A stretch of 64,000 nt of DNA from Bdellovibrionales bacterium (GCA_043764155.1 JAYUKW010000033.1:6126-70125); one strand, 5' to 3'. Shown: positions 12,803-58,984, counted from the stretch's first letter. Program-made: numbers and translations. The notes: generated by a model not told the origin, from the sequence alone.

Positions 12803-12813
12803 TTTTATAATAT

Positions 12814-12884
12814 TTAGTCAAGACCATTATGGATTATAATCCATAATGGTCTTGACTAAACTAGATTATAATCCATAATGGTCT
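12814..12884. repeat. 46-bp perfect palindrome plus a third copy of its 20-bp half-site, abutting the ATPase start codon
   Basis: TTAGTCAAGACCATTATGGATTAT / ATAATCCATAATGGTCTTGACTAA spans 12814-12859. GATTATAATCCATAATGGTCT is repeated directly at 12832-12852 and 12864-12884. The ATG of the next gene is at 12886. Confidence 0.85.
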
Positions 12885-21812: not shown

Positions 21813-22142
21813 TTGAAGGCTATTAAAAAAGTTGAATGGCTTGGCGACAGTAAAATAATCTTGTCTAATTTTCCTATTGAAACAAAATCTTCAATAGGCT
21901 TTCAACTCAATGTTTTACAAAAAGGAGAAATTCCAATTCGAAGTCGCCCAATGAAGAGCATTGGACCAAGCGTTTTCGAACTCAAAGAACAAGATGAAGC
22001 AGGATGGTATAGGGTGGTTTATACTTTACAAATAAAAGGACATATTTATGTATTACATGCATTTACCAAAAAAAGTTCCAAAACTTCTAAAGTGGATCTT
22101 GATGTTGCCAAATTAAGGCTAAAGCAACTTAGGAGACTATAA
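21813..22142 (+). CDS. type II toxin, RelE/ParE superfamily (phage Gp49-like, DUF891)
   Basis: 109 aa with a TTG start. N-terminus KKVEWLGDSKIILSNFP and ..YRVVYTLQIKGHIYVLHAFTKKS.. are typical of Gp49-like toxins. Its stop overlaps the start of the HTH partner (ATAATG). Confidence 0.75.
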   Translation: MKAIKKVEWLGDSKIILSNFPIETKSSIGFQLNVLQKGEIPIRSRPMKSIGPSVFELKEQDEAGWYRVVYTLQIKGHIYVLHAFTKKSSKTSKVDLDVAKLRLKQLRRL

Positions 22143-22426
22143 TGCCGAGAAAAGTAAAATCTGTTTTTGAAGATATTGGCTTCACTAAAAGCGAAAGCTT
22201 AGCAATGTCACTTAAGGTAGATCTTTTTCTGAATATAATCAAAATTATTCGTAATCGAAATCTCAAATCAAAAGATCTTCAAAAAATTTTAGCAGTACCT
22301 CATTCAAGGGTCAGTGAGTTAATGAACGCCCATCTTTCTACTTTCAGTATTGAAAAACTAATCACCTACTTAGAAAAACTTGGTTGCACTGCAACTTTGT
22401 CAGTAAAAAATCAAAGAGCTAGCTAA
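22142..22426 (+). CDS. XRE-type HTH antitoxin partner
   Basis: 94 aa. SVFEDIGFTKSESLAMSLKVDL...LKSKDLQKILAVPHSRVSELMNA..FSIEKLITYLEKLG matches the antidote partner of Gp49-like toxins by recollection. Confidence 0.75.
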   Translation: MPRKVKSVFEDIGFTKSESLAMSLKVDLFLNIIKIIRNRNLKSKDLQKILAVPHSRVSELMNAHLSTFSIEKLITYLEKLGCTATLSVKNQRAS

Positions 22427-30068: not shown

Positions 30069-30527
30069 TTAAATAAACACTTTCGCAGATACATTAAACC
30101 TTTTAGCAAGCGCTCTTATCTGACGAAGATTCAGCTCCCTTTGTCCGGCTAAGATTTTTGATACTACAGACTGCCCACCAAGATCTTCCGAAAGATCAGC
30201 TTGTTTTAGATTCTTTAGTTCCATCAAATATACAAGCATTTCAGCACCGGTCACATTTTGTGTAGTGAATTGATTTCTTTCATAATCACCAGCAAGCTCT
30301 GAAAGAGTTCTTAAATACAATTCAATACCTTTGTCTTTTGATTTTTCAGAATTTACATAAACAATAAGCTTTTCAATAACCCGGAGTGCATCCTCGTGAT
30401 GCCTTTTAGAAGAAATAGATTGAAGAGGAAAAACTTCAACAAGTTCTAAATATGTAGAGCTTACTTTCTGGCCAGAAAGGCCAACGTCTTTTTTAATATT
30501 TAAAATTAACTTCTGCGCGAAATTCAT
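30069..30527 (-). CDS. higA: HigA-type antitoxin (C-terminal XRE HTH)
   Basis: 152 aa starting 3 nt downstream of higB. The C-terminus LKQADLSEDLGGQSVVSKILAGQRELNLRQIRALAKRFNVSAKVFI is typical of the partner of HigB_toxin-family genes. Confidence 0.75.
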   Translation of the reverse strand: MNFAQKLILNIKKDVGLSGQKVSSTYLELVEVFPLQSISSKRHHEDALRVIEKLIVYVNSEKSKDKGIELYLRTLSELAGDYERNQFTTQNVTGAEMLVYLMELKNLKQADLSEDLGGQSVVSKILAGQRELNLRQIRALAKRFNVSAKVFI

Positions 30528-30530
30528 TTT

Positions 30531-30821
30531 TTACTCCTTCCATTTATTATTGTCGTACTCTTTATGAGTTAATACATGAGTTATCAACACAACTTTAACC
30601 CCATATTCAATTTTTGTTATAGCCCGTACTTTGTTCCCAGCAACATCAAATATTATTTGTGAACCAACAAAATCAACACACCCACCAAACAAGTTTTTTA
30701 TATCTTGCGGTTTATCAAAATCACTTTCCTCAATCAACTTTGTCCATCTCTCCAAAGCCTTTCGGCTTGTTGAATGCTTCTTTTTAAACTGCTCAATTAT
30801 GTTTCGGCCAAGAAGCTTCAT
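30531..30821 (-). CDS. higB: HigB-family mRNA interferase toxin (HigB_toxin / RelE-like)
   Basis: 96 aa. ..ALERWTKLIEESDFDKPQDIKNLFG..VDFVGSQIIFDVAGNKVRAITKIEYGVKVVLITHVLTHKEYD.. matches the HigB_toxin family pattern. Confidence 0.85.
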   Translation of the reverse strand: MKLLGRNIIEQFKKKHSTSRKALERWTKLIEESDFDKPQDIKNLFGGCVDFVGSQIIFDVAGNKVRAITKIEYGVKVVLITHVLTHKEYDNNKWKE

Positions 30822-31990: not shown

Positions 31991-32335
31991 ATGGCAAATT
32001 TTAGATTTATTCATTGGTTAGCTGATTGGATTGAAAGTCAGACATATTTTGTTTTCGAATGGGATCTGGGTAATCGCACAAAGAATTTAACTAAACATGG
32101 AATTACTGTTGATGACGCAGAATCTGTATTTAACCAGTTAGAATCTATTAGAGCTCTTGGTGAACAAATTAGCCCCACTGTAAATGAACCTAGATATGGA
32201 ATTCTTGGTTTAACAGATAATTTAAATCATGTGTTTATATGCTTTACTATACGTGGTTCTGGAATCCGTATTATCCACATTAGAAAAATGAACAAAAAAG
32301 AAAGAGGTTTATATGCCAAATTATGTGAAGAATGA
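31991..32335 (+). CDS. brnT: BrnT toxin (DUF497 ribonuclease)
   Basis: 114 aa. FEWDLGNRTKNLTKHGITVDDAESVF...EPRYGILG...VFICFTIRGSGIRIIHIRKMNKKERGLY matches the DUF497 pattern. Overlaps brnA by 23 nt. Confidence 0.85.
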   Translation: MANFRFIHWLADWIESQTYFVFEWDLGNRTKNLTKHGITVDDAESVFNQLESIRALGEQISPTVNEPRYGILGLTDNLNHVFICFTIRGSGIRIIHIRKMNKKERGLYAKLCEE

Positions 32336-32549
32336 AAAAGGTTACGCCAACATTAAGTTCAATGCTAAGGCCGTCAAAGATGCATATTCCAAGGCTAAAA
32401 CTAAGCGCAAGCATCCAACCAGTGTTAATCTACCTGAAGAAGTTATCACAGCCCTAAAGGCTTTAGCTTTAAAGATGGACGTTCCGTATCAAACCCTTAT
32501 GCGTAAATTTATTATCGAAGGTCTTACCAAAAGAAAACGGAGCGCTTGA
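32313..32549 (+). CDS. brnA: BrnA antitoxin (CopG/RHH-like)
   Basis: 78 aa. ..TSVNLPEEVITALKALALKMDVPYQTLMRKFIIEGL.. is the typical BrnA C-terminal pattern. Confidence 0.8.
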   Translation: MPNYVKNEKGYANIKFNAKAVKDAYSKAKTKRKHPTSVNLPEEVITALKALALKMDVPYQTLMRKFIIEGLTKRKRSA

Positions 32550-49604: not shown

Positions 49605-49675
49605 AAGGTGCCAGGTTCCGTTTGGGAATTAAACCACTTGTATTTGTTTAATTCCCAAACGGAACCTGGCACCTT
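49605..49675. repeat. perfect palindrome (30-bp arms, 11-nt loop) with GTGCCAGGTTC termini, exactly filling the gap between two convergent stop codons
   Basis: AAGGTGCCAGGTTCCGTTTGGGAATTAAAC (49605-49634) pairs with GTTTAATTCCCAAACGGAACCTGGCACCTT (49646-49675). It starts 1 nt after the TAG of the MAPEG gene and overlaps the TAA of the LLM gene by 2 nt. Confidence 0.9.
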
Positions 49676-51093: not shown

Positions 51094-51654
51094 TTGGATT
51101 TCAGAAACAAAAAACCGACGAAATATTTATGGTTAGATATGGAAATGACAGGCCTTGATGTCCAAAAAGAAAGAATCATTGAAGTCGCTGCCATCATCAC
51201 CGACACCGATTTAAATGAAATCAGCAATTATCACGCGGTGATTTTTCAAGATCATGAATTTATTGAACGTATGGACGACTGGAATCAAAAACAGCACAAG
51301 GCCACTGGTCTAATTAAATTGATTCCTGATGGCAAAAAGCAAGACGTAGTTGAAAGCGAACTCATGGCCTGGATTAACACACACTACAATGAAGAACTGC
51401 CGATTTTAGCAGGAAATAGTATCGCTCAAGATAAACTTTTTATTGATTTTCATATGCCTAAACTTAAAGAGGCTCTTCATTACCGAATGTTAGATGTCAC
51501 ATCTTGGAAGATTCCATTTTGGATTAAAGGAATTGAAATGAAAAAGAAAAATGTCCACCGCGCCGTCGACGACATCAGAGAAAGTATCAAAGAATTTAGA
51601 ACTTATTTAAAGTTCGTGGATTTCAACACCCCTGTGGATTACAAAAAAAAATAA
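51094..51654 (+). CDS. orn: oligoribonuclease
   Basis: LWLDMEMTGLD, IIEVAAIITD, AGNSIAQDKLFI and HRAVDDIRESIKE align with E. coli Orn DEDDh motifs. TTG start per the track. The last 8 codons lie inside the palindrome at 51631-51895. Confidence 0.9.
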   Translation: MDFRNKKPTKYLWLDMEMTGLDVQKERIIEVAAIITDTDLNEISNYHAVIFQDHEFIERMDDWNQKQHKATGLIKLIPDGKKQDVVESELMAWINTHYNEELPILAGNSIAQDKLFIDFHMPKLKEALHYRMLDVTSWKIPFWIKGIEMKKKNVHRAVDDIRESIKEFRTYLKFVDFNTPVDYKKK

Positions 51655-51895
51655 CAAAAGAATTAAGCTATAAATCTATTTCATAATTAGTTTCCATTCT
51701 GTATTTTAAAACAGGCTCGTTGGCATGAAGCTTTGATGCTGGAAAAGTTCCAGCGAACATCGCAGCTGTGAGTGAACTTGACAGCTCTGCAAAGCGAGTG
51801 ACAAGGCTTCGCCTGTTTTAAAATACAGAATGGAAACTAATTATGAAATAGATTTATAGCTTAATTCTTTTGTTATTTTTTTTGTAATCCACAGG
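51631..51895. repeat. 265-bp palindromic element: 85/84-bp arms around a 96-nt conserved core
   Basis: Arms 51631-51715 and 51812-51895 are reverse complements except for an A9 versus T8 run. The core contains GGCTCGTTGGCATGAAGCTTTG (51714-51735) and TGCAAAGCGAGTGACAAGG (51788-51806), which are also present at 57951-57972 and 58047-58065. Confidence 0.9.
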
Positions 51896-51919
51896 AGCGT
51901 TTCAAGTCCATTTAAACGG

Positions 51920-51947
51920 GTTTAATTCTCAAACGGAACCTGGCACT
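51920..51947. repeat. solo half-site of the GTGCCAGGTTC palindrome family, 2 nt after the ahcY stop codon
   Basis: GTTTAATTCTCAAACGGAACCTGGCACT differs at 2 positions from the right arm at 49646-49673. No inverted partner was seen nearby. Confidence 0.8.
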
Positions 51948-51949
51948 TT

Positions 51950-57407: not shown

Positions 57408-57776
57408 TTATTTTTTAGGCGACTTACTATCTGGCACTTTGTGAGAGCAATTTGGACTTTTAAATTTTTTTGCAGCATTAACAGCACTCGAAGACTTAGT
57501 TGGAATGAAAGACGACCCACTCTTTAGCTGATCTGGACTTAAAGTTTTTAAAGCCAAAGCATGTATTCGCGGCATAATGTCTTTCAAGGTTTCATAAACA
57601 TGTTTTTGTTTGTCTATGGATTTGAGACCCTTAAACATTTCGCTGACGATAAAAACTTTAAAGTGCGACTCTCGACCTTTAGGTCCCGAATGCAGATCAC
57701 TTTCATTCACAATTTCCAAATCATTTGGGCTATAAACCGACATTAGCAACTGCTCAATTTCATTTTGAATTTTCAT
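57408..57776 (-). CDS. bolA: BolA-family protein with a basic C-terminal extension
   Basis: ..VNESDLHSGPKGRESHFKVFIVSEMFKGLKSIDKQKHVYETLKDIM.RIHALALKTLSP.. is the BolA signature. About 35 extra K/S/P-rich C-terminal residues. Confidence 0.8.
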   Translation of the reverse strand: MKIQNEIEQLLMSVYSPNDLEIVNESDLHSGPKGRESHFKVFIVSEMFKGLKSIDKQKHVYETLKDIMPRIHALALKTLSPDQLKSGSSFIPTKSSSAVNAAKKFKSPNCSHKVPDSKSPKK

Positions 57777-57817
57777 ATTTAAACCCTACCGGAATACGCT
57801 AATCTACGCCACCAAAT

Positions 57818-58199
57818 AGTGCCAGGTTCTTTTTTGTAATTTAAATGACCTTATGATCTTAAAAGTGGGACAGACCTTGTCATTCGCCTTGCAATTCGAG
57901 AGCTACAAAAATTTAGTTTATTTTAAAGATCCTTTAGAGCATTTAAAATAGGCTCGTTGGCATGAAGCTTTGCTGCTGTCTAGTTCGTTTGCTGGCATTC
58001 GAGGGGCTACGCACCCTCGCCAGCTCACTGGAACTTTTCCAGCATTTGCAAAGCGAATGACAAGGTCTGCCCTGTTTTAAATGCTCTAAAGGATCTTTAA
58101 AATAAACTAAATTTTTGTAGCTCTCGAGCAAGGCTTCATGCCAACGAGCCCACTTTTAAGTTCATAAGGTCATTTAAATTACAAAAAGAACCTGGCACT
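57818..58199. repeat. 382-bp composite palindromic element (outer GTGCCAGGTTC arms, inner 53-bp perfect arms, conserved core, interleaved P/Q boxes)
   Basis: Outer arms 57818-57869 / 58149-58199 (50/52). Inner arms 57896-57948 / 58075-58127 (53/53). P 57871-57893 versus P' 58047-58069 (22/23). Q 57951-57972 versus Q' 58128-58150 (22/23). Confidence 0.9.
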
Positions 58200-58207
58200 G
58201 GGTGGAT

Positions 58208-58984
58208 CTAGATCAGTTCGTAGAGGACGGTCATTGCTAATGTGAAAGTGATTAACGTAAGGCTTATGATACGGATTTGATGCAGGTTTTTATTATTTAA
58301 AATTTTACCAACGTAAGATCCTCCGATGATCCCAATAATCATCAGCAAAAACGAATCAAAACCTACTTTGTTGTAAAACTCGCTCAGTAAATTCAAATCA
58401 AATAGAAAGGCTGAAATAAAAACACCTAAACATACAAAAATCATCATGGCGTTGACAGTTGGGGCTTCTTCTTTAGGAGATATATTTTTGTTATTTAATA
58501 CCAGCCAATTTAAGAAGACTCCGCTCCCAACGCCAGCAAATCCAGAAAGAAGACCGGCTATAACACCTAGTTTGTGAGGCGGTAAATTAGCCAGATAATT
58601 TTTCTTATTTTTGCTTTCTAAATTTCTAGCCATTAGTTTTAAGACCGTATTTAAAAAACTAAAACTCATTAAAATTAAAAACAACACAAGAAAAACTCTT
58701 AAATAGTCTCCGTCAACTTGCTTCGCTATTAAAGAACCTATTAAACCGCCAATCACAATAAACGGCGCCATCTGGAGCACCAAAGGCCAAACAATTTTTT
58801 TTTGAAATTGATATTGAACTGTATTAATAGTCACAGATATAAATACAAAAGTTAAACTTAAGACAATGGCCTGATAGGGGGTCAAATCATAAATTTTAGG
58901 TAATAAGGGAACTAAAAAAATTCCTCCACCAATTCCCAAAAAAGAAGAGACAAAGCCAAGGGCCAATCCTAAAAATAAACTCAT
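58208..58984 (-). CDS. TauE/SafE-family anion (sulfite) exporter
   Basis: 258 aa with about 8 TM helices. G-rich motifs (LGIGGGIFLVPLL, GFAGVGSGVFL) are typical of TauE/SafE. Confidence 0.75.
   Translation of the reverse strand: MSLFLGLALGFVSSFLGIGGGIFLVPLLPKIYDLTPYQAIVLSLTFVFISVTINTVQYQFQKKIVWPLVLQMAPFIVIGGLIGSLIAKQVDGDYLRVFLVLFLILMSFSFLNTVLKLMARNLESKNKKNYLANLPPHKLGVIAGLLSGFAGVGSGVFLNWLVLNNKNISPKEEAPTVNAMMIFVCLGVFISAFLFDLNLLSEFYNKVGFDSFLLMIIGIIGGSYVGKILNNKNLHQIRIISLTLITFTLAMTVLYELI

Follow-up and report, generated by a model that had tools for sequence, protein, structure and literature searches.

A candidate family of nested, hairpin-forming repeats between TauE, bolA and other genes of an uncultured Bdellovibrionales-like lineage

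A 382-bp palindromic segment between a TauE family gene and bolA in a Bdellovibrionales bacterium (positions 57818–58199 of the 64,000-nucleotide stretch of DNA analysed here, called the window below) is probably a copy of a dispersed, insertion-polymorphic, non-coding palindromic family of the MITE/REPIN-like kind in an uncultured Bdellovibrionales-like lineage. The family is best read as undescribed, non-autonomous, hairpin-forming repeats of uncultured Bdellovibrio-like bacteria. Its basic unit is a long hairpin with AT-rich arms, a single asymmetric box that is conserved and a loop that varies, and the segment between TauE and bolA (copy 1) is a composite in which one unit occupies the loop position of a second unit in the opposite polarity.

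The palindrome between TauE and bolA

The genes that surround copy 1 are all on the minus strand and are fumC, an unannotated 296-amino-acid ORF, the TauE family protein gene (58208–58984) and bolA (57408–57776), as assigned with Pfam. Recomputation of the repeats in 57818–58199 gave the block order A-P-I-Q-mid-P′-I′-Q′-A′, and the A/A′, P/P′ and Q/Q′ blocks of the initial annotation were reproduced in the order it had given. Outer arm A (57818–57869, plus strand) is complementary to A′ (58149–58199) at 50 of 52 positions, with one mismatch and one 1-nt indel, while P (57871–57893) with P′ (58047–58069) and Q (57951–57972) with Q′ (58128–58150) are each complementary at 22 of 23. The I/I′ pair is likewise present, but its length had been put at 53 of 53 nt and on recomputation is 57 nt at 98% complementarity (I, 57896–57952; I′, 58071–58127, both on the plus strand). 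The outermost 12 nt of arm A (AGTGCCAGGTTC) also occur in a separate small-hairpin family of the same genome (below), and A′ terminates in GAACCTGGCACT, 8 nt from the TauE stop codon; a weak outward extension of the palindrome (CCACC at 57809–57813 and GGTGG at 58203–58207) brings its edge to 3 nt from that stop codon. At its other side the element starts 41 nt from the first ATG of the bolA ORF, so the distance first reported holds to that codon, and 74 nt from the bolA start in the public gene call (111 amino acids). ORF 57943–58131, whose coordinates cover I, the inner unit and I′, had no Pfam match, in agreement with the initial view that no ORF accounts for the composite palindrome. Membership of a described Rfam family, for which the initial annotation had allowed, was looked for and not found: the scan of the whole window returned nothing at or above the gathering threshold, and the region itself gave just chance miRNA matches of 23 bits against thresholds of 60.

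The four box halves, all given on the plus strand, are the outer P-type half at 57868–57893 (GGACAGACCTTGTCATTCGCCTTGCA) and its partner, the outer Q′-type half at 58128–58151, and the inner Q-type half at 57950–57974 (AGGCTCGTTGGCATGAAGCTTTGCT) and the inner P′-type half at 58046–58072. Between the inner halves lies the variable loop, mid (57975–58045), with two small internal hairpins. A box is the imperfect duplex of a Q-type strand (GGCTCG-TTGGCAT-GAA-GCTTTGC) with a P′-type strand, and it has a 3 × 6 internal loop, a 3 + 3 bp stem with a G·A mismatch (T·C on the other strand) and a 3 × 2 internal loop. The predicted folds of the 382-bp element are very stable, at −147.7 kcal/mol for the plus strand as DNA against −44.6 ± 4.7 kcal/mol for dinucleotide shuffles (z = −22) and −230.3 kcal/mol for the minus, gene-sense strand as RNA (z = −23).

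How do the repeats within the element pair with one another? The initial annotation took P:P′ and Q:Q′ to be crossing pairs that could not all fold together. This reading, in effect a pseudoknot, was rejected on two grounds, the covariation and the minimum-energy fold. For the window copy that fold is a single nested hairpin with 47 A:A′, 17 P:Q′, 54 I:I′ and 17 Q:P′ pairs and 0 crossing pairs. When P and Q are aligned, 15 of 27 positions are identical and both have the form GGC…TTGKCAT…GCYTTGC; on this alignment they are diverged (paralogous) versions of one box, so P can pair with Q′ and Q with P′, and the best local matches seem to cross because each box type is most like its own kind. The sole P/P′ mismatch and the sole Q/Q′ mismatch fall at the same box position, with GCCTTGC in the outer and GCTTTGC in the inner box; under the nested reading this is a compensatory change. 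In an alignment of six related copies from one metagenome-derived genome (MAG, below) the two outer boxes covary (score 0.211 versus 0.086 when shuffled, a value reached by 0 of 500 shuffles), with 95.4% of cells paired and double changes in 4 pairs; the covariation of the crossing pairs in the same six copies is not above that of shuffles (397 of 500). As isolated duplexes the crossing pairs have energies of −40.7 and −46.8 kcal/mol, versus −16.7 and −21.3 kcal/mol for the nested ones, and the high P:P′ and Q:Q′ identity reflects conservation of the box, not pairing.

The composite architecture itself was examined with a covariance model, R1, which was built from inner units and then run over the window and related loci (designated by L numbers). 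R1 matches the inner unit of copy 1 at 57937–58086 on the plus strand (86.6 bits) and the outer unit at 57854–58164 on the minus strand (59.1 bits, E = 4e-12), which bears out the earlier suggestion that an inner unit (I-Q-mid-P′-I′) lies inverted inside P…Q′. Outer units were also matched on the opposite strand in five of the six MAG composites, and the sixth, L026, has the matching arrangement by eye; inner and outer boxes are of opposite polarity in 7/7 composites. The nested arrangement is found again, with its geometry kept constant, in another genus-level lineage, and so it is unlikely to have arisen by local accident. Single boxes do not fold on themselves above shuffles (six P- and Q-type boxes folded as DNA, z = −0.58 to +1.37), and so they are not REPs.

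Several smaller observations concern the boxes and loops. The mids of copy 1 (57975–58045) and of copy 2, a single-box unit elsewhere in the window (51738–51787), are homologous at both ends and inverted relative to the P/Q boxes, such that 58028–58045 matches 51753–51736 in reverse. Compared with copy 2, the copy 1 mid has an additional GC-rich hairpin (GCTGGC..GAGGGGCTACGCACCCTC..GCCAGC), possibly a further nested insertion. The boxes (57950–57974, 51788–51803 and others) also bear a likeness to sigma-54 −24/−12 promoter elements, whose consensus is TGGCAC-N5-TTGC with GG-N10-GC spacing: Q reads TGGCAT-N6-TTGCA, one nucleotide over, and P reads TGTCAT-N5-TTGCA, with GT replacing GG. A sigma-54 promoter was rejected because Q has the GG but N11 and P has N10 but GT, and a scan with the consensus found 4 matches versus 2.0 expected, which is no enrichment. 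On the minus strand, 57883–57856 contains a weak promoter-like match that faces bolA (ATGACA-16-TAAGAT, 9/12) and to which the outer P box and arm A both contribute; the scan for promoters and terminators gave weak consensus matches alone, with no terminator T-run and no convincing promoter.

Family members and host DNA in their arms

Copies elsewhere, which the initial annotation had suggested looking for, were found both in a MAG and in the genome of the window organism. One Bdellovibrionales MAG, GCA_031412575.1, has 8 exact matches to the Q 18-mer, and other genomes gave single matches, about the chance expectation. This MAG contains six composites, which with the one in the window makes seven, and every MAG copy has the order A-P-I-Q-mid-P′-I′-Q′-A′ and a P-to-Q′ core of 221–223 nt. 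The GGCTCGTTGGCATGAAGCTTTG portion (22 nt) of the inner Q box is identical in 6/6 MAG copies. RNAalifold analysis of the six-copy alignment returned a nested hairpin in which 41 of the 83 pairs show compensatory double changes and just 4 use G-U in any copy; the stems differ among copies yet remain Watson–Crick on both strands. The inner boxes are near-invariant and the stems ~50% diverged, and inner-box identity extends over 20–22 nt across lineages whose TauE proteins are 66% identical. This combination of invariant boxes and diverged stems needs either selection on each copy or a putative process of turnover.

The description of the family is based on ~11 units from three lineages. About 97 kb of the window organism's genome contains three loci with four units. 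Besides copy 1 there is copy 2 (51625–51901, plus strand; core 51714–51813), which R1 matches over window positions 51700–51827 with 92.9 bits and whose arms are ~92 nt long (inner 73 nt 100% and outer 26 nt 92%). A second single-box member lies on another scaffold of the same genome (L064, 13136–13239; R1, E = 2e-9); it is diverged and retains the box structure, both the G·A mismatch and the loops, through compensatory changes. A minimal single-box member is present in a further relative (L058, 14502–14583; R1, E = 3e-6), where the box closes on a 5-nt loop. Two other relatives had no units in the 11–18 kb examined. In a JGI relative a long-arm palindrome with 60-nt arms of 97% identity (L057, 5371–5547) has at its centre the outer part of the box alone (GAGTTC … GTATGTTCGAG) around a perfect 12-bp stem, and R1 does not detect it. 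Scans of metagenome contigs gave 0 matches to the Q 22-mer and 19 matches to the P 18-mer, none of which lies within 130 nt of a Q box; among them, the nine low-to-mid-GC matches that were inspected (seven loci with GC of 0.38–0.39, L053 with 0.45 and L046 with 0.47) appeared unrelated, and the P 18-mer matches were treated as chance. There were 0 matches in a scan of viral contigs and none to plasmids and phages by blastn, and a search of the literature on Bdellovibrio-like bacteria found no palindromic repeats or MITEs.

The arms of the hairpins contain host DNA. At 51625–51654 the left arm of copy 2 consists of the final 9 codons of orn and its stop codon (NTPVDYKKK*), a C-terminus that is conserved in ~80% identical homologues without the element, and an inverted copy of this orn end lies on the far side of copy 2 at 51876–51901. 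In the JGI relative (L057) the spacer downstream of orn has no element. Similarly, the arm of MAG copy L028 holds the last six codons and stop (…GIQFEF*) of an outer-membrane-protein-like gene, which are conserved in 20/20 homologues, also at the DNA level, and an inverted copy of this coding end is again found on the far side; the arm of L064 takes in the T-tract of the rpsI terminator. Host coding 3′ ends in the arms with inverted far-side copies, in two independent cases, thus indicate that the palindromes expand into host DNA. When arms of different copies were compared with each other, 4 of 21 pairs of A arms and 6 of 21 pairs of I arms were above the 95th percentile of shuffles; this is just marginally above shuffles, so the arms are mostly not shared and were rejected as conserved element sequence. 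Arms with so little similarity, together with the captured ends, imply that expansion replaces one flank by the complement of the other.

Homogenisation and expansion of inverted-repeat arms by template switching are reported in the literature (PMC13100816; PMC7202029). We propose that template switching is the reason why the stems are Watson–Crick on both strands and nearly free of G-U, and stems of this kind argue for maintenance at the DNA rather than the RNA level.

Two further features of individual arms and flanks were seen. In relatives, orn and the AdoHcyase gene are separated by a DUF924 gene (window 51655–51949 compared with L057 10562–11216), and in the window this interval holds copy 2 and half a hairpin (below) alone, without DUF924; the comparison suggests that formation of copy 2 may have been accompanied by a deletion. 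In MAG copy L008 (2031–2671), 6/6 mismatches in the ~73-nt outer arms are A·C or C·A on one strand and are G·U-compatible on the strand of the flanking genes, a pattern that could be due to RNA-level selection or to C-to-T deamination of the non-template strand. We rejected a test of RNA versus DNA selection based on which way the arm mismatches point, as the mismatches are too few and deamination bias confounds it.

Insertion sites and alternative explanations

The initial annotation also pointed to empty sites in relatives as something to be sought, and three relatives are empty at TauE–BolA. They retain the fumC-orf-TauE-BolA synteny, and their TauE–BolA spacers are 82 nt (L036), none at all (L037, where the genes overlap) and 87 nt (L058), versus 431 nt to the ATG of the bolA ORF, or 464 nt to the start in the public call, in the window. 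The window copy is thus an insertion. The site orthologous to that of MAG copy L028 is likewise empty in L066 and in L064, the latter in the window organism's own genome. There is no direct repeat around 57818/58199, and no target-site duplication is definable because the palindromic arms blur the ends; a T/A-rich palindromic motif beside several boxes (TTTAAAA / TTTTAAA) could be a hidden palindromic duplication. No transposase, RAYT or recombinase is among the Pfam-annotated genes over ~80 kb of this genome, on the window and a second scaffold, which makes mobilisation in trans an assumption, and no parent insertion sequence with the same ends was seen among the loci examined.

The window contains other palindromes. 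A separate small hairpin (AAGGTGCCAGGTTC…) with 30-nt perfect arms at 49605–49675 has terminal 12 nt in common with arms A/A′, and the right half of another, with its left half missing, lies beside copy 2 at 51920–51947 (plus strand), 2 nt from the AdoHcyase stop codon; hairpins of this type are found 0–2 nt after stop codons. The match between the small-hairpin ends and the outermost 12 nt of A/A′ suggests that copy 1 may sit in, or may have absorbed, such a hairpin downstream of TauE. Contig k141_1107089 of a second assembly ends at about window position 49649, the centre of the 49605–49675 hairpin. A perfect 48-nt palindrome without spacer (TTTAGTCAAGACCATTATGGATTA|TAATCC…) lies at 12813–12884, flanked by the genes for a TonB-dependent receptor and an AAA_14/DUF4143 ATPase, with a third copy of its 21-nt arm at 12864–12884, and has no sequence relation to the box family. 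The window also has toxin–antitoxin-like pairs by Pfam at 21813–22426 (Gp49/HTH_37), 30069–30821 (HigB/HTH_3) and 31991–32549 (BrnT/CopG-like).

Could the hairpins instead be cis-acting RNA elements selected by the host, acting as terminators, RNase III sites or mRNA stabilisers, with the box bound by a host RNA-binding protein and the two boxes of opposite polarity giving function in either direction of transcription? All 8 copies examined are directly downstream of a stop codon, 3 of them between convergent genes, and these positions equally fit a host-selected RNA or terminator role; the near-invariance of the inner boxes while the stems drift, the compensatory maintenance of the G·A mismatch and loops in diverged L064, and the six L008 arm mismatches that would all be G-U on the transcribed strand also speak for it. 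We nevertheless consider this explanation unlikely. The family-wide near-absence of G-U from the stems does not look like RNA-level selection, the elements lie in both orientations with respect to the upstream gene, the insertions are lineage-specific with orthologous sites empty, the searches for an Rfam match, a terminator T-run and a convincing promoter (above) were negative, and the L008 pattern is equally explained by deamination from C to T on the non-template strand. A site-specific inversion or recombination switch, with P/P′ and Q/Q′ as interlocked inverted pairs of recombination sites, would account for the crossing duplexes being, taken alone, the best local matches (−40.7 and −46.8 kcal/mol) and for a mid that is inverted relative to the boxes between copies 1 and 2; it is highly improbable, however, given crossing pairs that do not covary, 7/7 composites in the same isomer, no recombinase gene nearby and many dispersed copies without cargo. 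That the element arose as a scar of local rearrangement, or as a chimera in the assembly of this contig, we find scarcely credible. Palindromes do disturb short-read assembly, several MAG copies are at contig ends, and the contig of the second assembly stops at the centre of the 49605–49675 hairpin, but an independent MAG has 6 copies of the same architecture, further members were found on other scaffolds and three contigs carry TauE with the same neighbouring genes. On the L064/L065 member two assemblies agree 100%, base for base, and an artefact is therefore unlikely.

The remaining alternative treats each box as a REP and each unit as a REPIN whose mobility would depend on a RAYT, a transposase of the Y1 HUH type, from elsewhere in the genome. 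In REPINs the spacers are all different and yet form hairpins, the configurations are TT-AA and AA-TT, and higher-order arrangements are tandem (PMC3337134). The family described here is similar to the REPINs of Pseudomonas and E. coli in having inverted doublets of a conserved box that form a hairpin around a pairing spacer different in each copy, in having an asymmetric box that occurs in two configurations (Q..P′ and P..Q′ here), and in being extragenic, multicopy and non-coding. REPs have a conserved GTAG tetranucleotide at their 5′ end, whereas neither GTAG nor CTAC is present in any P or Q box, and the individual boxes are not palindromes (z = −0.6 to +1.4 against shuffles, rounded). The elements are also 3–4 times as long as REPINs, the units have external arms of 50–90 nt that capture host coding ends, the common form is a nested double unit of opposite polarity rather than a tandem array, and no RAYT or other Y1_Tnp gene was found in the annotated stretches (~80 kb). 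We thus regard the REPIN–RAYT explanation as very unlikely. The best-supported position is that the family resembles the known MITE/REPIN kind but falls outside the REPs on the features tested, because its boxes are non-palindromic and without GTAG and there is no RAYT in ~80 kb of annotated DNA.

Relation to known elements, possible mechanism and meaning

In the preferred reading, the element is of MITE type: it is smaller than ~500 bp, non-coding and bounded by terminal inverted repeats, and the family has dispersed copies with presence/absence polymorphism at orthologous sites. Correia/NEMIS of Neisseria and ERIC/IRU of enterobacteria are non-autonomous palindromic hairpin MITEs of 100–400 bp that are co-transcribed with adjacent genes as long RNA hairpins, have size variants due to internal indels and are insertion-polymorphic between relatives. 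The present family differs from them in having no evident sequence relationship, no defined terminal repeat with a TA or TSD, and a conserved part that is internal (the box near the tip), with termini that are variable and partly host-derived. The BIMEs of E. coli are mosaics of Y and Z palindromic units that are intergenic, after genes, and alternate head-to-head and tail-to-tail with conserved linker motifs. The two box versions (Y and Z there, P and Q here), their fixed relative orientations and their intergenic location after genes are shared, but each BIME unit is palindromic, and here P>, Q>, <P and <Q lie in one nested hairpin with variable complementary linkers. Integron attC sites and the attP of CTX phage are protein-recognition sites that form only when distant, imperfectly complementary segments of one strand pair, with conserved mismatches or extrahelical bases giving polarity and an intervening stem that varies. 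The likeness to these sites is in the way of working. Integron attC sites have R″/R′ cores (RYYYAAC / GTTRRRY), gene cassettes and the IntI integrase, and identity with them was rejected, as the box GTTGGCA fails GTTRRRY and the neighbours are housekeeping genes in conserved synteny. The family differs from attC and attP in having none of these cores and no integrase or cassette context, two boxes ~50 bp apart rather than one core site, and many dispersed copies that are free of cargo.

A mechanism consistent with these end products would be as follows. An enzyme acting in trans would mobilise the element by reading the asymmetric box in its folded, single-stranded form, and intramolecular template switching during replication would homogenise the arms and extend them into the host flanks, so that the dispensable flank would be replaced by a complementary copy of the gene-side one. 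Composites of opposite polarity would persist because same-polarity ones would carry direct repeats that are prone to deletion. At the present locus, insertion would have split a once-adjacent TauE–bolA pair with a hairpin of about −230 kcal/mol by prediction, which would probably be a barrier to RNA processing or a termination barrier, and an influence of the element on bolA transcription, which the initial annotation had taken as a necessity, is plausible. A bolder form of this scheme, which we hold to be distinctly improbable, is that of a structure-defined mobile element, whose unit would be bounded by the base of an extruded hairpin instead of fixed termini, whose enzyme would read the mismatched box on folded single-stranded DNA, and whose insertion or maintenance would create 50–90 nt inverted duplications of host flanks. 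If this were true, the variable inner arms I would be host DNA captured at earlier sites, and the family would combine palindrome-driven transposition with the capture of host sequence, a mode not described for bacterial repeats.

The family adds repeats from a poorly studied lineage of predatory bacteria to the REP/REPIN/MITE field, and it has three unusual traits: a conserved box that is present solely as an imperfect duplex between distant segments, a common form that is a nested double unit of fixed opposite polarity, and palindrome arms that incorporate conserved host coding ends. The capture of host ends is a natural and datable case of inverted-repeat expansion, which has so far been studied mostly in engineered quasipalindromes. 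For the genomes that carry them, these elements break short-read assemblies and separate genes, here TauE and bolA, that are adjacent in relatives.
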